DNA of 64,000 nt from positions 28,054-92,053 of the forward strand of contig MGMS01000009.1 in the NCBI GenBank assembly GCA_001796515.1, written 5' to 3'. Shown piece after piece: positions 1,999-28,561 of the stretch (the stretch's first letter is position 1; every line of letters begins with the position of its first letter). The DNA is from Chloroflexi bacterium RBG_13_51_36 (lineage in GTDB: Bacteria > Chloroflexota > Dehalococcoidia > GIF9 > AB-539-J10). Under the pieces are notes generated by a model. That model searched no databases, had not been told where the DNA came from, and worked only from the letters and a program-made list of their open reading frames with translations. Both the position numbers and the translations under genes were made by a program.

Positions 1999-2439
1999 AT
2001 GCATGTGAACACTCGCCTGTTGAAGATAGGCATCCGTGTTTGGCTCGTTGACACCTTGATTGCCGCCTTCAACTTCTTCGTACTCATGAATCTTGTTTAC
2101 GAACCACGGTGGGGCCCTCTTGTAGCGCATCAAATCGGCATGTCTACCAGAATTGTCGTGACATTTGTCCTGGCATATTTCCTGCTCAGGTACGTCAAGC
2201 AGTACACTCGCAAAGGCTTGATTCTCATTGGATTGGTATGGTTGGGTCTCGAGGAAATATTCGAATGGGGAGGTAGCTTCATCCTCCGGCGATCGGTTGA
2301 AGAAATCCTGGTTGGCTGGAACATATTTGCGGGCTATATGTGGCCTTACGTAATGTTGGCGTATCTGCTGTCAAATCTGATTGTGGGTGTAACGCTACAC
2401 CCGGGCAAGAAGGAGGCGGTCCCAAAAGACATTCGATGA
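1999..2439 (+). CDS. hypothetical integral membrane protein
   Basis: 146 aa with 4 predicted hydrophobic helices and no recognisable motif. Confidence 0.4.
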   Translation: MHVNTRLLKIGIRVWLVDTLIAAFNFFVLMNLVYEPRWGPLVAHQIGMSTRIVVTFVLAYFLLRYVKQYTRKGLILIGLVWLGLEEIFEWGGSFILRRSVEEILVGWNIFAGYMWPYVMLAYLLSNLIVGVTLHPGKKEAVPKDIR

Positions 2440-2549
2440 GATTGGAGACAGCCTCTTGTCGTACATTGGCTGGAGCCAGCTCACTCTCTGGGAATTCCGA
2501 GCCTTGGCGATAGCGTGCAGAATCCTCTCAAATACTACTGCTCTGGCTC

Positions 2550-3923
2550 TCACGATACCAGCCGGATATGAACGGGGGCACGTTCGAAATCGGCCGCAGC
2601 GAGCAAAGCTTGCGGATGGAGTCCGGCCATAGCTGCCACAAATCGGTCGGGTATTATATCTAGCCTGGTGTTGTAGAAGGTAGCAATGTTATTGAAGTAG
2701 TCGCGCGCCAGGGCAATGCGCTGTTCCGTATCTGCCAGTGCGTGCTGGAGTTGCAGGAAAGATTCACTGGCTTTCAGTTCGGGATAACGCTCAACTATTA
2801 CGGCGAGCATCGGTGCGATTCCTTTAGGATCAGGTCCCGGTTCACCTGGCGGCGTTGTCTCTATCTGCCCGCGTATTTCCGCCAACAGCCTCTGTGTTTC
2901 GCTTTCGTGGGTGCGATATCCTTCTATGGTTCCTACCAGATTGGGAATCAGGTCGTGCCGTCGCTTAAGTTGTACATCAACCTGTGACCTGCCCTGACCG
3001 ACCATGTTACGGAGGTTGATTAGGCTGTTGTACGTAGTCCAAACCCAACCGAGTAGCATTGCGGCAATAAACGCGCCGGTCGCAATTGCAGGCGGTTGCC
3101 ATATGATGCTTCCCGTTTCGAGCACACTATAACCTATTGCACCTGCGATGACCGCCCCCAACCCCGGAATTGACCATAGCCAGAACGACAATGCGTACCT
3201 TCGGCTAACTTGCTTCTCCGTCCGGGTTGAAATCAAAAACATGGGCGCGTCCTTATCATGTGCCACTTCAGCAGCAACGATGTCCTCTCTCTCACGCGCC
3301 TGTCCCACGATATAGAGCATGGAATGTAGGGGCACCGCGGTCTCCAGGAAATGCCGTCTGTGAGTAGAATCAGCTACCTCGCTCGGCGGCCCTTTGCCAA
3401 AATAGACAGAACTACCTCTGGAGCAAGTCTGGTCAAGTACCTTGACACCATGGATAGTGGCGCCTTCAGGAACGATACGGATGACACCGGAATCGTCCCT
3501 CAAATAGAATGGGATAGCCTGACCGCCGCCGGCCACTCTGGTCCAGCCGCTCTCCGTGCGGGTGCGCCTCTGGGTGTGACCTTCGGAATCGGTATATGTC
3601 TCGACGACAGTCCTTGACCAGTGTTCATCGACTTGCCAAACATATTGTACGCAGCGAGTCTCAGCCAGATAACTGGTCAGAGGGTTCTCGGTTTCCGCCG
3701 TGCCCTGAAGCTCGACAAAACCGATAAATACGCCCTGCGCTTTCGAAGTCGGCACGTCATCGGTGAGGCGCTTCCGACGCAAAGCAAAAAAGGCTCCAAC
3801 CAGACACCCGAGGGATGCCAAAGAGCCGGCGAGCACCGATAACAGGCTATATGTCATGTCTTGATTGTGCGACGCAGATGAGCCTTTTGTCAAAGTGGGT
3901 GAGGGAGCTGCTGCATCTTTCAT
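2550..3923 (-). CDS. GIDE-like domain / LemA family fusion membrane protein
   Basis: 457 aa. N-terminal TM, then a GIDE-like region ('GVFIGFVELQGTAE...QYVWQVDEHW...'). A central TM pair precedes a C-terminal LemA signature ('YNSLINLRNMV...DVQLKRRHDLIPNLV...GYRTHE...'). Confidence 0.7.
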   Translation of the reverse strand: MKDAAAPSPTLTKGSSASHNQDMTYSLLSVLAGSLASLGCLVGAFFALRRKRLTDDVPTSKAQGVFIGFVELQGTAETENPLTSYLAETRCVQYVWQVDEHWSRTVVETYTDSEGHTQRRTRTESGWTRVAGGGQAIPFYLRDDSGVIRIVPEGATIHGVKVLDQTCSRGSSVYFGKGPPSEVADSTHRRHFLETAVPLHSMLYIVGQAREREDIVAAEVAHDKDAPMFLISTRTEKQVSRRYALSFWLWSIPGLGAVIAGAIGYSVLETGSIIWQPPAIATGAFIAAMLLGWVWTTYNSLINLRNMVGQGRSQVDVQLKRRHDLIPNLVGTIEGYRTHESETQRLLAEIRGQIETTPPGEPGPDPKGIAPMLAVIVERYPELKASESFLQLQHALADTEQRIALARDYFNNIATFYNTRLDIIPDRFVAAMAGLHPQALLAAADFERAPVHIRLVS

Positions 3924-11886: not shown

Positions 11887-12228
11887 TCAGTGCTGAGACC
11901 TGAACAGCCTATGCCACCATCTTTGCTTATGGGTATGCTTATGGGCTTCCAGGAGCAATAATCGTTCTTGGAGGAATTCTGCTTTAGCTTTCCAGTACCC
12001 GACTTCCTGGGATAGTTGCTCTATTCTGTTGATGAGGGGTTGGGCTGGCTGGCTGTCGTCTGATAAGGGCTTGCTGGGCAGGGGCAGGTCTTCGATAACA
12101 TAGGACTCCCCGAACTTGGTAGGGACCAACCTGGCCTTGAGCTTGCCGGACTTGATATAGCGGCGGATGGTGACTATGGAGACCCCTAATGCCTGAGCAG
12201 CCTCTCTCAGTGTATAACCACTCATCAA
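11887..12228 (-). CDS. excisionase/MerR-type HTH DNA-binding protein
   Basis: 'YTLREAAQALGVSIVTIRRYIKSGKLKA' is an excisionase-family HTH. It lies just outside the tRNA-Lys att repeat, so it may be a remnant of an older element. Confidence 0.55.
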   Translation of the reverse strand: MMSGYTLREAAQALGVSIVTIRRYIKSGKLKARLVPTKFGESYVIEDLPLPSKPLSDDSQPAQPLINRIEQLSQEVGYWKAKAEFLQERLLLLEAHKHTHKQRWWHRLFRSQH

Positions 12229-12320: not shown

Positions 12321-12362
12321 TGAGCCGTGCGAGACTCGAACTCGCGACACCCTGATTAAAAG
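12321..12362. repeat. attL: 42-bp direct repeat identical to tRNA-Lys 3' portion (17215..17256)
   Basis: 12321..12362 is identical to 17215..17256 across 42 bp. It covers the tRNA-Lys anticodon loop through the 3' end. The flanks diverge immediately on both sides. Confidence 0.85.
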
Positions 12363-12457
12363 ATACAAGAGATTTGTCCGTGAGCGTGAAAAGGGGTAAT
12401 CCCTGATACCTTTCTGTTGACAATTTAGCTGCGATTTGTACCGTTAGATACCTTCTG

Positions 12458-12504
12458 GTTTTTCGTGGTGGTGAAAAGTTCGTTAGCAAAAATGTTAGCA
12501 TCTC
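12458..12504. repeat. arm-like repeat copy A (TTTCGTGGTGGTGAAAAGTTCGTTAGCAAAAATGTTAGCA)
   Basis: Shares ~80% identity over ~38 bp with copy B (14817..14858). It shares a near-identical 20-bp 'CGTTAGCAAAA(A)TGTTAGCA' with copy C (17171..17193). It has an internal GTTAGCA direct repeat. Confidence 0.6.
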
Positions 12505-12506
12505 TA

Positions 12507-14714
12507 CTAGGATGTCAGAGGTAGCGGACCAATATTGGCATCGGTGTTGGTTGGAAGGTAGAGTTTGTTGAATCTAAGATTGTTTTCAACAACATCAATT
12601 TCGTCGTCTGAAAGACCGAGTAGTCTGTATATAGCCTGGTCGATAGCGTAGAAATGGCCAGCTATTCGAGCATTGTAATTATTGACGAACTCGACTTGGA
12701 CATGGGTGTTCTTTCTGACGTAGGATTTGTTGAACTCAGCAATGAACTTGTGTTCTTCTCTAATGATGTGGTCGAAGGTATCGTTAATTAAGGTGATTTG
12801 CTCTTGTGAATCGGGTCTATTCAGTGTGATTATAGGAAGGCGCAGGGTGCTGAAGACTCTAGGGTCCGTGAAGTCTGTAGTGCCATGTCTATTGAGCAGA
12901 TACCATAAGCAAAACGACGACTTGAGGAAGGCTACGAGGAATCTCATACCATAGAATGAAGTCAATGGTTCGGGATGTAGCTTCATAAGCGGGTGTCTAG
13001 CTATCTTACAATAGAAGGGGTAGTCGTACTTTGAGTAATAAATGGCACCTTGCGGGACAATGTAAATGGTTTCTTTCAATTTGGCCTTGGGGACAGGATG
13101 TTGGACGAGCCATAGAGGCAAGGTATGTCTCGAATATGCACGGTCTAGACGAGCTGGGGTAGTGTCTTGGATATAAAAGAGGTTGCCGCGAGCACAACCA
13201 ATTATATGTGGGAATTTTAGCAATCGTTGGAGCTGACTATCGTTTAAAGTGACAGGTTCAGGAATAACTGGTGTCGCCCTTATTTTGAAGCTATTCATTT
13301 CGAATTTCCGCAATACGGGTAGTGATACGGTGAGATTCTTTATTTGAAGACAGTCAGCTTCAACAGCTTGAAGTCGATTGACTATATTGGCCTGAACGTC
13401 TTTGAGGACGTTCTCTTGTACCAGTGATTCTATCTCAGAGGCAGAAAGAGTAACGATTTTGCTTTTGCGGATTGAATATATTGAAGGGTCGCCCTCTATA
13501 TTTACCAAGCTAGTTCCCTTGGTGAAATAGAGAGAGAGTATGAATCTTCTGTTTTGGAGTTCATAGTGTTTCACTTGTGGTATGTCCACAGAAAAGAATG
13601 GTTCAAGTTTACGGAGGTGAGGGAAAGCCGTATCGATAATATGTGAAATCTCGGTGACGATTGTGTTGTTTGCAGATGGGGATATGCCGACCTTGCTCTT
13701 ATTCTCTGTTAGTCCCAGGAGAATATAACCACCCGCAGAATTGTTTAGGGCACAGGTGAGTTTGAGAAAATATCGGATGTCATCTTCAGATTCGAGTTTT
13801 GTTATACCGAAGGAATTATTCAGTTCTGTAAGGTTATTCAATATTTTAGTAGTTGATGGTTGCTCTGTAAAGAATGACTCCAATGGATTTAGGAACGCTT
13901 TTCTGAGTGATTGAAAGGACGGGTCTTCAAGTTTTGCCCAGGTGAAGACGTTGCCAACATCTGAAGGAACATGCGCATCCGAGCATTTTAGAAATGCTAG
14001 TGGTCTTGTACGCTTATATTGAGGGGTCGATAATAACCTGACGATGTTGTCGCGCTGAGTCTCGCTTTTGTAGCAAACGCCAGATAATTGTTCGGACCGG
14101 AAGCAGTGAATTCTTTCTGCTCCCTTCAATTCCTGCCAAATACCTTTGTCGGAATCGGTATGAGCATCAATAAGGATGCAGTCGTGAGTTGTTGTTTTTT
14201 CGAGGAGAGTAACGATATCCCAGCTAGGCAGAATCGGTGATTCCGTCTTAGCCAAGTTCTCAGGTTTGTGGCCAGCGTCTGAAAGGAATTGCTCAATTGA
14301 CTGGGGATTAACCGAGGTGTTGAATATTAGAAGAATATGAATACCAGGCCTGACCGTGAGTTCTACGCCCGGAAGGACCAAAACACCTTCGAAGAGTGAT
14401 AATCTGGTTTTAATCTCTGCTAATCTCTTGTTTGCTTGTTGAGAGTCTGTGATTGTTGACAGGGATTGTTGTTCAAGCAACAACTTATCCTTGAGGGAGT
14501 TTATTTTCTTGTATCCCTCAATTGTATTGTGGTCCGTAACTGCAATAATTCTGATTTCCTTGGATTTCGCATTTTGAAGAATATCGTAATATTCCTGGTC
14601 ATTTGTGTCGCCGGTGTCGCGATTATAGCCTGAAGAGGCAGGCGTATGAACATGGAGGTCGACTCTTACAAAATCTTCTTTGGTATCGGTTTTGCTGGCC
14701 ATTTTGTTGCTCAC
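12507..14714 (-). CDS. PHP-domain phosphoesterase fused to Schlafen/AlbA_2-like domain; large uncharacterised cargo protein
   Basis: 735 aa. The N-terminal ~260 aa carry the PHP motifs 'VDLHVHTPASS', 'AVTDHNT', 'GVELT', 'IDAHTD' and 'CSDAHVP'. The middle 'KLTCALNNSAGGYILLGLTENKSKVGI' resembles the AlbA_2/Schlafen nucleic-acid-binding core. The C-terminal ~300 aa have no recognisable family. Confidence 0.8.
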   Translation of the reverse strand: MSNKMASKTDTKEDFVRVDLHVHTPASSGYNRDTGDTNDQEYYDILQNAKSKEIRIIAVTDHNTIEGYKKINSLKDKLLLEQQSLSTITDSQQANKRLAEIKTRLSLFEGVLVLPGVELTVRPGIHILLIFNTSVNPQSIEQFLSDAGHKPENLAKTESPILPSWDIVTLLEKTTTHDCILIDAHTDSDKGIWQELKGAERIHCFRSEQLSGVCYKSETQRDNIVRLLSTPQYKRTRPLAFLKCSDAHVPSDVGNVFTWAKLEDPSFQSLRKAFLNPLESFFTEQPSTTKILNNLTELNNSFGITKLESEDDIRYFLKLTCALNNSAGGYILLGLTENKSKVGISPSANNTIVTEISHIIDTAFPHLRKLEPFFSVDIPQVKHYELQNRRFILSLYFTKGTSLVNIEGDPSIYSIRKSKIVTLSASEIESLVQENVLKDVQANIVNRLQAVEADCLQIKNLTVSLPVLRKFEMNSFKIRATPVIPEPVTLNDSQLQRLLKFPHIIGCARGNLFYIQDTTPARLDRAYSRHTLPLWLVQHPVPKAKLKETIYIVPQGAIYYSKYDYPFYCKIARHPLMKLHPEPLTSFYGMRFLVAFLKSSFCLWYLLNRHGTTDFTDPRVFSTLRLPIITLNRPDSQEQITLINDTFDHIIREEHKFIAEFNKSYVRKNTHVQVEFVNNYNARIAGHFYAIDQAIYRLLGLSDDEIDVVENNLRFNKLYLPTNTDANIGPLPLTS

Positions 14715-14816
14715 CTCTCGTCAATAATTCTAATCGGTGATTATATCGCAAATTGGTGTTTTTGACTATTGATTTGTAAGTGGTATAGCTTGGGCTGGTA
14801 CCGATAGGTCAGTCTT

Positions 14817-14858
14817 CGTCTTTCGTGGTGAAAAGTGCGTTGGCAGAGATCTTGGCGG
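14817..14858. repeat. arm-like repeat copy B in divergent promoter region
   Basis: 'TTTCGTGGTGAAAAGTGCGTTGGCAGAGATCTTGGCG' lies between the PHP gene start (14714) and the LuxR gene start (14925). Confidence 0.55.
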
Positions 14859-14924
14859 AATGAGAGACTTGACAAATCATTAAGAATATGGTACTGTGGT
14901 ACTATATTTGCTAGGGTGTCAAAT

Positions 14925-15335
14925 ATGAATGAATATGGAATGAGTATAAATCCTCGGAGTAAATGGAGCAAAGACTCAAGGGAAGCAAAAGTATCTGTGA
15001 GAGAGCTGGAGATACTGATTTTGCACAGCGAAGGAAGGTCGAACGAGGAAATAGCTGAGACCCTTGATATTAAGTATCAGACTGTAAAGAACATGTTGTA
15101 CAGTCTGAACAAGAAGCTAGATGCAACAACCAATGCGCAGGCTATTATGAAAGCGATTTCAGAGGGTCTAGTGAGGGTGAATATACATAACAAGGATGAA
15201 AGGGACCTTGCCGAGAAGATAATGTGGGCTATACAAACCGATGTATTGGTGTCGAAGGAGGACGCGGGTCTAATAAACATAATAAAGAAGTGGAGAAGAG
15301 AGCGAAAGTCGAAGAGTGAACAAGGGGGTAAGTGA
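14925..15335 (+). CDS. LuxR/GerE-type HTH transcriptional regulator
   Basis: 'VSVRELEILILHSEGRSNEEIAETLDIKYQTVKNMLYSLNKKL' is the LuxR C-terminal HTH. Start placed at an in-frame internal ATG. Confidence 0.65.
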   Translation: MNEYGMSINPRSKWSKDSREAKVSVRELEILILHSEGRSNEEIAETLDIKYQTVKNMLYSLNKKLDATTNAQAIMKAISEGLVRVNIHNKDERDLAEKIMWAIQTDVLVSKEDAGLINIIKKWRRERKSKSEQGGK

Positions 15336-16204
15336 AAGGTGAGGGAATCATTGAGTCGGTGGAGCGAACAAGTAACGCGAGGCGATGCTGGCGAGGGCGG
15401 TGGCGGCAGCCACTCGCCCGCCCATCCTTCTTTCCTTGTCTTAATATGAATAATGTCAACGCTGAGCTTTGGAGAGCACAGAGTTTATTGGCATTGTGGG
15501 ACTTCCTGGAGTATAAAGGACGTATTGGTAGGACGCATGTGATTCTGCATAAGGTGAATGAGCCTTCACTTTTGAAGATTATGCCTACAAAGTGTAGAAG
15601 TAGATACTTTGATGATGGGCGGCTGTATATGTCAGGGAGAATCCGAATACGGCTTGGTAGATACCATAAGGTGCCAGGATTGATGGAAACGCTAACCTAT
15701 GATACGAAGAGAATTGGGAAGAGAGAGGCATGGGCTAGCTTTGGGCAAGATACCAGGCGGTTTCTAAATGGGGTAAACCAGTATAGAAAGAGAAGAGGCT
15801 GGCGAAGGTTACACTATTTGTGGGTTGTAGAAGTGCAGCGTGGGACCGGTTATCCGCATGTGCATATCTTCTTTCCGAACCTAAGGTGGCTGGCACCGCT
15901 TAAGGTTATCAACGGTAATTGGGGAGAAGGTAGGGCTAACGTTGAGAGTCCTAAGAAGATCAAGGTTAGTTGTGCGGCTTATGTTTCAAAGTACCTGCGC
16001 AAGATGGAGGGGTGGCTAGACCTTCACCTAGCCATGCTTTGGTGTGGCAAGTGCCGGATGTACGGCTTTTCCAGAGGCTTCTCGTGCAAGATTGGAAAGA
16101 GAGAATCGGAATGGCGGAGATGGCAAATTGTGGAAACTGGGGATCGTGAACGGTTGGAAAAGGTCCTTGAGGAGGGGGCATATGCAATTGAACAGGGGTG
16201 TTGA
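15332..16204 (+). CDS. HUH rolling-circle replication initiator (Rep)
   Basis: HUH motif 'YPHVHIFF' and catalytic Tyr motif 'AAYVSKYLRK'. The GTG at 15332 has RBS AAGGGGG 5 nt upstream. An alternative start is the ATG at 15446. Confidence 0.65.
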   Translation: MKGEGIIESVERTSNARRCWRGRWRQPLARPSFFPCLNMNNVNAELWRAQSLLALWDFLEYKGRIGRTHVILHKVNEPSLLKIMPTKCRSRYFDDGRLYMSGRIRIRLGRYHKVPGLMETLTYDTKRIGKREAWASFGQDTRRFLNGVNQYRKRRGWRRLHYLWVVEVQRGTGYPHVHIFFPNLRWLAPLKVINGNWGEGRANVESPKKIKVSCAAYVSKYLRKMEGWLDLHLAMLWCGKCRMYGFSRGFSCKIGKRESEWRRWQIVETGDRERLEKVLEEGAYAIEQGC

Positions 16205-16376
16205 TAACAGGCTGTGCATAACAGTGCCGGAAGCAGCGGAAATGCTCGGCATATCAAGGAATTCTGCCTATGAATTGGTGAAGCAAGGGAGATTTCCTGT
16301 GATAAGGTTTGGGAAAAGGCTTCTAATACCAAGATTGGCATTGGAGAAAATGCTGGAGAAAGGCGTCACGAAGTAG
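16182..16376 (+). CDS. excisionase-family HTH DNA-binding protein (Xis-like)
   Basis: 'ITVPEAAEMLGISRNSAYELVKQGRFPVIRFGKRLLIPRLALEKML' matches the excisionase HTH_17 pattern. The internal ATG at 16182 has a GGAGGGGG RBS. It overlaps the rep 3' end. Confidence 0.65.
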   Translation: MQLNRGVDNRLCITVPEAAEMLGISRNSAYELVKQGRFPVIRFGKRLLIPRLALEKMLEKGVTK

Positions 16377-16393
16377 GTCAAAGGAGGGCCGAA

Positions 16394-16885
16394 ATGGATG
16401 AAATGCTGGTTATTTGGACTGCGGTGAATGCGTCGGCAACAATAGCTATGGTGGTGGTGTTGTTTCGGACACTGAGAGGTACATTTGCACAAGTTAGGGC
16501 GATGCGACAGGCGCAGGAGTTGCAGGGACGTGCACATGAATTGCAGGGATTTGTGAAGGTTGCAGATTGGCTGCAAAGAGAAGAGGTTAGGAGAGCTAGA
16601 GGAAGAGTTTATGAGTTAGAGGATATAAAGTACAAGAGATGGGCTCGGGCAGACAGGGAAGAAGCTAGAGTCGTGTGCTACAACTTTGATGTTGTGGGGG
16701 ACATGTTAGACAGGAAACTGATAGATGAAGGTGTGTTGGATAAGTGGGGATGGACAATAAGTAGGTGTTGGGTAACAGTGGAACCGATGGTGAAAGAGGA
16801 GAGGGAGAAGAATCCGCGATTATTTGATCAGTTCGAGCGGCTGGCGGAGGTGGTGTATAAAGAATACACGAACAAGTTGAGGTAA
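16394..16885 (+). CDS. hypothetical protein with N-terminal TM helix (element-borne)
   Basis: 163 aa. Strong RBS AAAGGAGGG. No recognisable motifs. Confidence 0.45.
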   Translation: MDEMLVIWTAVNASATIAMVVVLFRTLRGTFAQVRAMRQAQELQGRAHELQGFVKVADWLQREEVRRARGRVYELEDIKYKRWARADREEARVVCYNFDVVGDMLDRKLIDEGVLDKWGWTISRCWVTVEPMVKEEREKNPRLFDQFERLAEVVYKEYTNKLR

Positions 16886-16899
16886 GAGGTGAGAAAGGC

Positions 16900-17190
16900 A
16901 TGAAAGGTCATATCTGTCAAAGAGCGAAAGGTAGCTGGACAATTGTTTATGATCTACCGATGGATGCTGTAACAGGTAAGCGGCGGCAGAAGTCGCAAAC
17001 GGTAAAGGGTACGAAAAGGGATGCTGAACGCGCCTTGCGTGAGGTACTGCTGTCACTTGAGCAGGGGTCATACGTTAAGCCCAACAAGATGACGTTAGGT
17101 GAATTGCTGAGGCAGCGGCGGAGAAGTTTGACAGGATTTTTGATGTGGATGAGGATGAAAAGTCATATGCGAACGTTAGCAAAATGTTAG
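16900..17190 (+). pseudogene. tyrosine integrase, N-terminal arm-binding/SAM-like fragment only (catalytic domain deleted)
   Basis: 'GSWTIVYDLPMDAVTGKRRQKSQTVKGTKRDAERALREVLLSLEQGSYVKPNKMTLGELL' is the typical phage-integrase N-terminus. The ORF stops after 96 aa, 24 bp before the tRNA-Lys 3' end. The stop codon lies inside repeat copy C. Confidence 0.6.
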
Positions 17191-17193
17191 CAG
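17171..17193. repeat. arm-like repeat copy C (CGTTAGCAAAATGTTAGCAGAT)
   Basis: Near-identical to 12481..12503. Located 22 bp from the attR/tRNA 3' end. Confidence 0.55.
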
Positions 17194-17214
17194 ATTCTGG
17201 TGATTTAGCTAGTG

Positions 17215-17287
17215 AGCCGTGCGAGACTCGAACTCGCGACACCCTGATTAAAAGTCAGGTGCTCTACCAACTGAGCTAACGGCCCAT
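17215..17287 (-). tRNA. tRNA-Lys (anticodon TTT)
   Basis: Reverse complement 'GGGCCGTTAGCTCAGTTGGTAGAGCACCTGACTTTTAATCAGGGTGTCGCGAGTTCGAGTCTCGCACGGCTCA'. Canonical D-loop, anticodon loop CTTTTAA and T-loop TTCGAGT. Acceptor stem has one G-U pair. No encoded CCA. Confidence 0.9.
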
Positions 17288-17625: not shown

Positions 17626-17668
17626 AGCGGGTGATGGGATTCGAACCCACGACGTCTTACTTGGGAAG
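17626..17668 (-). other. tRNA-Gly-like 3' fragment (anticodon loop to 3' end); att-type remnant
   Basis: Reverse complement 'CTTCCCAAGTAAGACGTCGTGGGTTCGAATCCCATCACCCGCT' has the CCC anticodon-loop half, a T-arm and an acceptor 3' strand. It has no 5' half or D-arm. It differs in T-arm and acceptor from the intact tRNA-Gly 730 bp away. Confidence 0.5.
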
Positions 17669-17920
17669 CGCATATTTGCAGGGAATGACTATTGACCTCC
17701 TAAGCCCCATAATTCATAGTATGTCAAAAATGGCGAAAATGTCAAGGCAAATGAGTGAGGGAGTGAAAACGTTAGAAGTCTCGGCTCATATCCCGTTTCG
17801 GAGACTTTATAGTGAGATGGTTTTAGTAGTATCGGAGGTTCTGAGCCCTGTATCGGAAGATTGTTGGTGAGTTTGACTCTGGGGCTGGTAGAGGTTACGA
17901 TAAGAGCAGGAAGAAAGAAC

Positions 17921-18398: not shown

Positions 18399-18470
18399 AG
18401 CGGGAGACGAGACTCGAACTCGCGACTCTCTGCTTGGGAAGCAGATGTTCTACCACTGAACTACTCCCGC
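18399..18470 (-). tRNA. tRNA-Gly (anticodon CCC)
   Basis: Reverse complement 'GCGGGAGTAGTTCAGTGGTAGAACATCTGCTTCCCAAGCAGAGAGTCGCGAGTTCGAGTCTCGTCTCCCGCT'. Anticodon stem TCTGC/GCAGA and loop TTCCCAA. Confidence 0.85.
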
Positions 18471-26774: not shown

Positions 26775-28561
26775 GCAAAATCACAGAGGTAAAACAGAGG
26801 CTAGACATAGTAGAGCTTGTCTCTGAGTACGCTACTCTGCAAAAAGCAGGGCGCAATTTCAAGGGCTTGTGCCCCTTCCACAGCGAGAAGCACGCTTCTT
26901 TTTATGTCTTTCCGGAGCAACAGAGCTGGCATTGCTTTGGCGCGTGTGGGACCGGCGGCGACGTTTTTTCCTTTGTCATGAAGAAGGAGAGCATTGACTT
27001 CGGCCAGGCTCTTCGTCTTCTGGCTCAAAGGAGCGGCATAACTCTAGGCCCTCCGGAGGCGCCAAGCAAGGCTGAGGATGAGAAGAAAGAGAAATTATTT
27101 CAGATTAATGAGGCGGCCACTGAATACTACCGTCACCTGCTTTCGAGCGCCAAGGCAGGGGAGGTAGCAAGAAGCTATCTGGCGAAAAGAAAGGTCATGC
27201 CCGAGACTGTCAAGGAATTCCGCCTCGGTTTCAGTCCAGACGCCTGGGAGACCATCAAGAATTACCTGCTGGGAAGAGGCTACACGGAAAAGGAGCTGGT
27301 AGAAGCCGGTCTAACAGTTGAGAAAGAGGAAGGTGGTAGTTATGACCGATTTCGCAACCGATTGCTGTTTCCCATATGTGATATCCAAGGGCGAGTCACC
27401 GGTTTCGGAGCGAGAGTATTGGATGATTCTCTGCCTAAATATATCAACTCCCCCCAAACGCCAATTTTCGATAAGAGTAGCAGCTTGTATGGCATCGATA
27501 AGGCTAAATCTGCCATCAGAAAGAAAAACCTGATAATAATCGTGGAAGGCTACATGGATGTCCTCACAGCTCACCAGCACGGGTGGCAAAATGTAGTCGG
27601 CTCAATGGGAACTTCTTTAACCGAGAAGCAAGTGGAAGGCATGAAAAGGCTGACCAACAATATAACTCTCGCACTTGATGCCGATCTTGCCGGAGAAGAG
27701 GCTACGTTGCGGGGCAAAGCGATACTGGCCTACTCTAATGCTGAAGCGAACGTCATATTATTACCTCCGGGCAAAGACCCGGACGAAGTGGTAAAAGAGG
27801 AGCCTGCTCTCTGGCAGAAGCTTGTAGAGGAAGCTCTGCCTATTATGGACTTCGCCTTCAAATCCGTGATAAGTAAGGTCGATATGAACAAAGCCAGGGA
27901 CAAGTCTCTGGCTGTACAGAAACTACTGCCATCAATCTATGAGATTAAAGACCCCGTGCAACAATCCCATTACCTGAAGAAACTGGCACGTGAACTAAAA
28001 ATCGAAGAGTCTGCCATAAGAACCGCCTTGCGAGAATCGAAAGTCGGTCCTAAAAAGTCTCAACCTGGCAAACCAGCAGGACAATCTCGCCTTGCCCGCC
28101 AGCTTGTTTCCAGCCCTATTGAAGAACGCTGCCTGGCACTCTTGCTTCAATTCCCGGAGCTCCGTCCCCTGGCACAAGAGCTATCACCAGAACACTTCGA
28201 ATCCACGGAGAATCGGGAGGTCTTTTTGGCATGGCAACATTCCGCAGATGGCTCGAACCTTGAAGGCAAACTTGACACCAGTTTATTAGAACATTTATAT
28301 TACTTGGTTAAAAAAAATTTCCCACCGGCTATACGGGAAAGCGAGCGAACGCGACAGCGTGATTTGGCCCAGTGTATTCGCCGTCTACAGGAGAAGTTGT
28401 GCAGGAGATTAGAGCTTGAGAAAGAGGCGACGCTTGAGATTGAGAGAGAAAAGGGCGGCGTAGGCTCAGAGTTGTCAAAACTAGAGGAACAAGGAATAGA
28501 GTCCGGGCAAAAACTTCAAGAAGTCTTTATCAAGAAAGAAAGAAACCATGGATTCAATTAA
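26771..28561 (+). CDS. dnaG: DNA primase DnaG
   Basis: Zinc-ribbon '[13 protein letters not shown]...WHCFGCG', TOPRIM '[10 protein letters not shown]...[11 protein letters not shown]'. 4-nt overlap with dgt. Confidence 0.9.

Follow-up and report, generated by a model that had tools for sequence, protein, structure and literature searches.

A PHP-AlbA_2 protein with a predicted restriction-type target-recognition domain: a candidate single-gene defence protein on a tRNA-Lys integrative element

The gene and its PHP domain

In a 64,000-nucleotide (nt) stretch of the genome of Chloroflexi bacterium RBG_13_51_36 (contig MGMS01000009.1, forward-strand positions 28,054 to 92,053), which as a whole we refer to as the window, a small integrative element at a tRNA-Lys gene carries one large gene at 12507..14714 on the minus strand. 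In the encoded protein, a PHP nuclease domain is followed by a Schlafen domain that is predicted to be dead, a long helix, a domain with the predicted fold of a DNA target-recognition domain (TRD) of restriction-modification (R-M) systems and a helical hairpin; a methyltransferase domain is absent.

The open reading frame is unbroken and comprises 735 amino acids (aa) when counted from GTG 14714. In the region 14700-14714 this GTG sits within the Shine-Dalgarno-like GAGGTGA, and ATG 14702 has the correct spacing 3' of GAGGTGA, agrees with the N-termini of homologues and is the start in the GenBank model OGN97830.1, a 'hypothetical protein' of 731 aa. The true start is likely ATG 14702, giving a product of 731 aa, and the residue numbers of the initial annotation of this DNA are therefore probably shifted by +4; residue numbering here follows the 735-aa version (GTG start) throughout. 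A consensus scan gives a candidate sigma-70-like promoter, TAGTCA-17-TATAAT, 5' of the gene at 14740..14768 on the minus strand. The GC content of the gene is 0.40-0.45 vs ~0.48-0.58 in the chromosomal flanks, and both the large uninterrupted reading frame and its AT-richness agree with the initial annotation. The full-length AlphaFold2 (AF2) model has a mean predicted local distance difference test score (pLDDT) of 86 and a predicted template modelling score (pTM) of 0.59.

The PHP superfamily is characterized by metal-binding HxH, DH(N), E, H, H/D and DxH motifs on a distorted TIM-barrel. The PHP domain of the protein (13860..14672, minus strand; residues ~15-285, with a helical insert at ~66-106) has this metal site: in an alignment of 29 family members with 27-78% identity, which underlies all conservation data below, D19/H21/H23, D61-H62-N63, E118, H126, D187 and D246/H248 are invariant, the S245-D246-x-H248 motif is invariant or nearly so, and H185 is kept in at least 90% of the members. 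In Foldseek searches with the full-length AF2 model, 3o0f, RNase AM and the PHP domain of PolC were matched with probability 1.0. Ligands and fold together place the domain in the PHP superfamily, and the complete set of HxH, DH, GxE, H and SDAH motifs described initially is borne out. Given that the metal site is invariant, PHP is the enzyme of the protein.

The domain was initially compared with PHP enzymes of the PolX and YciV type, and this comparison was too generic. NCBIfam matches to the PHP modules of TrlF (1.8e-38), Spaf_1101 (1e-27) and Ppl (7e-25), together with a PADLOC match to Ppl (1.2e-18), indicate by sequence that the domain is of the Ppl/TrlF/Spaf_1101 sub-type. These matches span only residues ~15-290 and profile positions ~5-280, i.e. 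the first quarter of profiles describing PHP+ATPase proteins of 850-950 aa, and the scores lie far below the NCBIfam cut-offs (TrlF, 132.9 vs 350; Spaf_1101, 97 vs 475; Ppl, 87 vs 1000). The matches to the generic Pfam PHP and PHP_C models are weak, each falling under its gathering score.

A Schlafen/AlbA_2 domain predicted to be non-catalytic

Residues ~286-424 (13443..13859, minus strand) have a Schlafen/AlbA_2 fold, as had been proposed initially for the core of the protein. Pfam SLFN_AlbA_2 (PF04326) scores 28.5 bits with the isolated domain and 25.2 bits with the whole protein, the gathering score being 25.3; a family profile matches the SLFN12/13/14/5/11 chains in the PDB at E-values of 2e-11 to 1e-6; and Foldseek matches SLFN12, the tRNase domain of SAMD9 and DIP2311. 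Membership in the Schlafen/AlbA_2 group is thus seen at the levels of both sequence and fold. The core sequence SAGGYILLGLTENKSKVGI corresponds to residues 326-344.

PMC13056530 and PMC12680541 define active Schlafens by a catalytic E-x4-(E/D)-x-K motif and an Asp that lies further downstream. The only invariant residues of the AlbA_2 domain are P286, N325, G329 and G334, and no acidic or Lys residue is conserved within residues 285-425. The Pfam match begins at profile position 19, past the catalytic motif, and the Asp of the SLFN13 'GVDD' sequence aligns to T336/E337, where D is found in only 7/29 members. The protein does not group with the active Schlafen RNases (pSlfn, SLFN11-14, SAMD9 and Avs9), as neither the catalytic motif nor the Asp is conserved, and from the alignment the domain is most likely non-catalytic.

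These data bear on the idea, alluded to in the initial annotation, that the protein is a Schlafen-type abortive-infection effector that cleaves tRNA or other RNA, with PHP and the C-terminus as its sensors. The Schlafen fold is real, and PMC13056530 describes defence through tRNA cleavage by bacterial Schlafens that carry diverse fused sensor domains; against this stand the missing catalytic residues, for which we rejected an active Schlafen tRNase, and the invariant metal site that marks PHP as the enzyme. We regard such an effector as highly improbable.

A C-terminal domain with the predicted fold of a target-recognition domain

In the AF2 models, as analysed by DSSP, a long connecting alpha-helix (residues 425-473; 13296..13442, minus strand) packs against the C-terminal helices. 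It leads into the core of the putative TRD (residues ~474-632; 12819..13295, minus strand), which has the motifs G-x3-GN, R522, LR529, P554-x-G556, 'FLKSSxxLWY' and 'LRLPI', and the protein is completed by a helical hairpin plus a short helix (residues ~633-715; 12570..12818, minus strand) ending in 'IYxLLxLSxxEIxxIE'. The framework motifs 'FLKSSxxLWY', 'LRLPI' and the terminal 'IYxLLxLSxxEIxxIE' are conserved; they resemble the TaqI_C/HsdS framework, and this resemblance was the lead for the fold test.

The AF2 model of the C-terminus has a pLDDT of 88 and a pTM of 0.87. The values listed for the C-terminal domain against known proteins are 12.7 for CamA, 11.7 for M.BseCI, 10.8 for BpuSI, 10.5 for BREX PglX, 8.9 for PacII S, 8.0 for BsaXI S, 7.8 for MmeI, 7.6-6.2 for five HsdS proteins and 6.4 each for Esub1 and M.TaqI. 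A Foldseek search with the C-terminus independently puts HsdS, CamA, PglX and BpuSI at the top, and the HsdS structure 1ydx is also among the Foldseek matches of the full-length search. The C-terminus has the fold shared by TaqI_C, HsdS and Type IIG enzymes, and we conclude from the predicted structure that it is an R-M-type DNA target-recognition domain. With a TRD at the C-terminus, the mechanistic reading shifts towards DNA.

Searches at the sequence level for Pfam TaqI_C, Methylase_S and MmeI_TRD gave no match for the query, TaqI_C being matched in 1/22 members at an E-value of 0.085; a PDB profile search with the C-terminus and hhalign comparisons with one Type IIG enzyme and one HsdS were also negative. 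The statement that the last 300 aa belong to no recognizable family therefore holds for sequence, in that there is no credible Pfam or PDB match, and not for the fold, which is that of an R-M-type TRD.

The TRDs of classical R-M systems are hypervariable. Mean pairwise identity in the family is 0.46 for PHP, 0.30 for AlbA_2 and 0.31-0.38 for the TRD, and the per-domain values track each other; for this reason we rejected hypervariability or swapping of the TRD between close relatives.

Family distribution and genomic neighbourhoods

A word-indexed search identified ~40 full-length relatives. When 1.84 billion representatives were searched with a profile built on the C-terminal region, 334 clusters at 50% identity were matched, 271 of them at E<=1e-10 and 135 at E<=1e-30. 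All 76 new matches of at least 650 aa carry PHP and the TRD, the AlbA_2 family profile is matched by 70 of these as well, and an alternative N-terminus was found in none of the 76; the three-domain architecture is therefore fixed and the TRD subtype private to the family. A full-length copy is present in ~20 of 185,579 GTDB species genomes (one genome per species), among them Dehalococcoidia, Bacteroidales/Marinifilum, Cloacimonadota and many Clostridia. The family is thus scattered patchily among four phyla, namely the Chloroflexota, the Bacteroidota, the Cloacimonadota and the Bacillota.

By raw count, ~13/22 loci examined for their neighbourhood (loci are given by L numbers) adjoin defence or mobile genes, the neighbours comprising R-M systems of Types I, IIG and III, Mrr, AbiV, reverse transcriptase, OLD, NERD, pSlfn, PDC-S01, HicB, insertion sequence (IS) elements and recombinases. 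Family members adjoin HEPN_AbiV, a reverse transcriptase and an OLD-like nuclease (L003); IS21 and NERD (L007); a canonical AlbA_2-HATPase-HTH pSlfn and PDC-S01 (L012); Mrr and PDC-S01 (L022); an MmeI-type IIG enzyme and a PDDEXK_9 protein (L026); and ResIII (L013), a serine recombinase (L021) and HicB (L024). No conserved partner gene or methyltransferase was found across the 22 neighbourhoods, in which every methyltransferase belongs to a complete R-M system nearby. In its adjacency to defence and mobile genes and its patchy spread over four phyla, the family has the generic traits of a defence system. The TRD-bearing family lacks conserved synteny, and the initial description of the gene as mobile or defence-like rather than core-syntenic fits its homologues.

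In two loci the family member is part of, or next to, a Type I R-M system: between hsdS and hsdR in L092, and immediately 3' of hsdR in L015. These positions, together with the long helices flanking the TRD, which resemble the conserved regions of HsdS, raise the possibility of a nuclease-bearing specificity subunit, in which the HsdS-like TRD and coiled-coil would dock on a resident HsdM or R-M complex and supply an alternative PHP arm or a coupling to methylation. We consider this very unlikely; most family members lie outside Type I operons. The same operon in L092 also encodes, at 2084-3052 between hsdM and hsdS, a 322-aa protein without a Pfam match.

A distant family of ~590-aa PHP-AlbA_2 proteins is found at ~50 other Anaerolineae/Chloroflexota loci (L032-L088). 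In Anaerolineae the gene lies 3' of Hsp20 - Lon protease - response regulator, with Lon in 26/31 loci, and it probably is a housekeeping or stress gene of this lineage. The presence of homologues in housekeeping synteny, which had been set out initially as grounds for abandoning a defence role, accordingly applies to this TRD-less family and not to the TRD-bearing one. Because such relatives sit in conserved Hsp20-Lon synteny, the PHP-AlbA_2 di-domain alone is not diagnostic of defence, and the case for defence rests on the TRD-bearing family's own distribution.

The same comparison is relevant to the possibility that the protein is a housekeeping or stress enzyme of nucleic-acid processing or repair, for instance an exoribonuclease akin to RNase AM or a phosphoesterase that processes ends, and that it came to lie on the island by chance. 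Apart from the Hsp20-Lon association of the distant family, this possibility is supported by RNase AM and uncharacterised phosphoesterases, which are the closest PHP folds solved, and by the ~8/22 loci that lie among housekeeping genes. The TRD-bearing family, however, is without conserved synteny and restricted to the few GTDB species genomes in four phyla given above, the gene in the window is the cargo of a mobile element, and an R-M-type TRD combined with a Ppl/TrlF-type PHP domain indicates conflict systems. In our view these data make a housekeeping function quite unlikely.

In PLSDB, only TrlF PHP-ATPases were matched. TrlF-family PHP+AAA-like ATPases are present on 480 PLSDB records, mostly conjugative plasmids of Escherichia and Klebsiella (e.g. 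NZ_MF788069.1 39047-39898); our literature search found no description of TrlF function.

The tRNA-Lys integrative element

The gene lies on an island of ~4.85 kb bounded by a direct repeat of 42 identical nt (12321-12362 = 17213-17254). The integration target is a tRNA-Lys(UUU) gene (17212..17285, minus strand), the 3' 42 nt of which are the proximal attachment (att) core, and the copy at 12321..12362 is the distal att core. In addition to the family gene, the island encodes a LuxR/GerE-type helix-turn-helix (HTH) regulator (14835..15335, plus strand; Pfam GerE 4.5e-11), a rolling-circle-type replication initiator, REP_ORF2-G2P (15332..16204, plus strand; Pfam 1.4e-12), an HTH_17 excisionase-like protein (16044..16376, plus strand; Pfam 1.4e-14), a DUF4760 gene (16394..16885, plus strand) and an integrase remnant of 96 aa (16900..17190, plus strand). 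These genes encode 96-290 aa, and the family gene is, as initially stated, the only large one.

A related copy of the element is found on the 5.3-kb contig L089, both ends of which lie in the tRNA-Lys att core. Its gene order is intact integrase (373 aa) - HTH_17 - Rep - GerE - family gene, the family member being 78% identical. Relative to this copy, the replication initiator gene of the window has 87% nt identity, the GerE gene has the same position in a region that has diverged, and the DUF4760 gene is extra. The integrase remnant consists of the Arm-DNA-binding N-terminus (Pfam Arm-DNA-bind_4) and the last few codons; comparison by blastn with the intact integrase (window 16900-17212 vs L089 132-1238) reveals an internal deletion of ~890 bp that includes the catalytic domain, with the junction at 17109-17119. 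Because of this deletion the element in the window is decayed, and it is probably immobile alone, unless helped in trans. The att repeat and the L089 copy with its intact integrase confirm that the gene is cargo of a tRNA-Lys integrative element.

Directly 3' of the gene lies a conserved att-adjacent arm (12363..12500). The ~150 nt from the gene stop to the att core ('TGCTAACATTTTTGCTAACGAACTTTTCACCACC...') are conserved in L089, L091 and L009, and the arm is repeated 5' of the gene in L091 (985-1128, 3395-3581) and L009 (8622-8716, 9547-9622, 12160-12275), the upstream copy in L091 including a degenerate att core. In the window a partial second copy is present 5' of the gene (14797..14870), giving rise to an imperfect direct repeat of ~60-95 nt (12440-12500 and 14797-14870). 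The 'arm-like repeats' reported initially thus exist and are part of this arm. Given the conservation of this arm and its repetition on both sides, the gene behaves as an att/arm-flanked cassette, formed by tandem accretion or resembling a cis-mobilizable element. In L009, from another Dehalococcoidia genome, the same tRNA-Lys/HTH_17 framework (82-86% nt identity) carries a family member that is only 43% identical, which is a hotspot pattern.

This cassette structure is compatible with an alternative in which the nuclease serves the cassette rather than host immunity, through homing-like spread, addiction or exclusion of competitors at tRNA-Lys. Such a selfish or element-maintenance role is in keeping with the att/arm flanks in the window, L091 and L009, the diverged alleles in the L009 framework, the clean solo insertions of several copies between housekeeping genes and the absence of a methyltransferase partner. 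It is at odds with most other loci, which have no nearby integrase or att structure, with the embedding in a Type I R-M operon and in defence islands, which suits immunity better, and with the conservation of the TRD over phyla with very different genomes, which makes a single homing site unlikely. We view this alternative as unlikely.

Three side observations were made around the island. An HTH_17/MerR-like gene (11887-12228, minus strand) lies just outside the distal att repeat; it has 82% nt identity to L009 8988-9388, the L009 counterpart adjoining tRNA-Lys, which suggests a shared hotspot framework or a remnant of an older insertion. GC skew is strongly positive (0.31-0.50) over 15000-17000, the Rep/excisionase part, and is the highest in the profiled 6-22 kb region; it may reflect a rolling-circle replicon ancestry of the element. 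Finally, a search of the island region with Rfam found only two tRNAs, and a 51-nt sequence at 17626-17676, called by neither ARAGORN nor Rfam, shares 73% identity with the 3' half of a nearby tRNA-Gly (18399-18449) and may be a tRNA fragment or the old att scar of another integration.

Discussion

Combining the domain, distribution and neighbourhood data, we suggest, with a probability of about one half, that the protein is a stand-alone, methyltransferase-less, TRD-guided PHP DNA nuclease that functions as a single-gene defence against phages or further kinds of invading DNA and is carried, as a cargo cassette, by a small tRNA-Lys integrative element. In this model, (i) the C-terminal TRD and helical hairpin would bind double-stranded DNA, the TRD fold being the reason to consider this target, and the hairpin and long helices may be where the protein dimerises, by analogy with half-size HsdS subunits; (ii) binding by the TRD would position the N-terminal PHP tri-metal phosphoesterase for DNA hydrolysis; and (iii) the dead Schlafen/AlbA_2 domain, which takes the position held by the methyltransferase in Type IIG enzymes, would serve as an extra nucleic-acid-binding, spacer or regulatory module. 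The anti-phage protein Ppl, the nearest characterised relative of the PHP domain, is reported to be a PHP single-stranded DNA 3'-5' exonuclease whose activity is controlled by NTPs and by 3'-OH ends (PMC12904381), and by analogy the PHP domain of the family may act as a 3'-5' exonuclease from ends or nicks.

Given that no methyltransferase accompanies the gene, host DNA would have to be spared in one of two ways. The TRD could read a feature that is absent from host DNA, such as a modified base in context, as in Type IV systems. Alternatively, the nuclease could be latent until infection. Type IV-like recognition is consistent with the conserved loops of the TRD.

Several observations weigh against this model. 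The TRD was assigned from a predicted structure, the domain escapes detection by sequence and profile methods, and the Foldseek E-values of the TRD matches are weak (0.03-0.4). Moreover, the TRD co-evolves with the rest of the protein and its loops are conserved family-wide, unlike those of classical R-M TRDs, which are hypervariable; for this reason it may not provide a range of sequence specificities, and its ligand could be other than a DNA sequence. RNases, such as RNase AM, and phosphatases are also found among PHP enzymes, and DNA is the substrate suggested by the domain context. The pTM of the full-length AF2 model leaves the inter-domain geometry uncertain. No family members were found in IMG/VR, among INPHARED phages or on PLSDB plasmids, and the ~8/22 loci among housekeeping genes are solo insertions. 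The model also requires a means of sparing self DNA, and the defence role of all members is predicted from sequence, structural models and genomic context.

As a more specific and tentative proposal, in our estimation possible yet doubtful, the family could constitute a new class of restriction-like enzymes, in which a PHP nuclease is guided by an R-M TRD without a cognate methyltransferase and a degenerate Schlafen domain acts as reader or regulator in place of the methyltransferase. Such a class would imply that recognition depends on modification (Type IV-like) or that the enzyme is a latent sequence-addressed exonuclease, and would offer a compact scaffold that could be re-targeted by a TRD swap. 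We know of no described restriction endonuclease that uses the PHP fold, and to our knowledge the PHP nucleases in defence so far come mainly from Ppl. If the model of a TRD-guided PHP nuclease is correct, it would represent a new pairing of effector and reader in bacterial immunity, a PHP nuclease with a DNA-reading module of R-M systems and free of a methylase. It would then raise the question of how a TRD nuclease without a methyltransferase distinguishes self from non-self, and as a small single-chain protein its separable nuclease and recognition modules could interest enzyme engineers. The protein is, in addition, an example of a Schlafen domain that is retained and yet, as predicted, catalytically inactivated. 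Its members belong to uncultured anaerobes of the four phyla given above, organisms that are overlooked by screens built on E. coli relatives.

Among known systems, Ppl (Gao_Ppl), TrlF and Spaf_1101 have the same PHP sub-type and are also single-gene proteins in conflict or mobile contexts. They differ in being ~850-950 aa long, with an SMC/AAA-like NTPase after PHP where the family has AlbA_2 and the TRD; no AAA or SMC Pfam match was found in the protein, which is not a full-length member of these families. Because AlbA_2 and the TRD replace the ATPase, gating by NTPs via an ATPase cannot apply to the family. The Type IIG/IIL enzymes (BpuSI, MmeI), the gamma-class adenine methyltransferases CamA, M.BseCI and M.TaqI, and BREX PglX have the methyltransferase domain that the family lacks. 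In Type IIG enzymes this is a SAM-dependent N6-adenine methyltransferase fused between nuclease and TRD; there were no N6_Mtase, Eco57I or MmeI_Mtase matches in the protein, and the AF2 model has the AlbA_2 fold at this position, placing the protein outside Type IIG. Furthermore, the nuclease of the family is PHP rather than PD-(D/E)xK, and its TRD is undetectable by sequence and not hypervariable within the family.

With pSlfn, mammalian SLFN and SAMD9 the family shares the AlbA_2/Schlafen core fold including the 'CALxNSxGG' signature, and pSlfn is likewise fused to other domains in a defence-like context; in the family the catalytic acidic and Lys residues are not conserved and the enzymatic module is PHP. 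None of the architectures named in the main text of PMC13056530 has PHP joined to Schlafen; such a fusion may be listed in its supplementary tables, which cover 55 architectures. The member between hsdS and hsdR occupies the same slot as PrrC/RloC-type genes in Type I R-M operons, and has no sequence or fold relation to them. The Anaerolineae ~590-aa proteins (e.g. L074:9980-11755) have the same di-domain, with 25-29% identity over residues 1-445, and end in a small unrelated domain instead of the TRD. In agreement with the initial annotation, which could name no defence system for the protein, PADLOC-DB 2.0 has no model for the family, the sole match being to the N-terminal quarter of Ppl, and a literature search found neither PHP with Schlafen/AlbA_2 in the sense used here nor PHP with a target-recognition domain. 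We suggest that the family represents known modules in a new combination, a single-protein nuclease defence that would draw one module each from Ppl/TrlF, from Type IIG enzymes and from Schlafen proteins.

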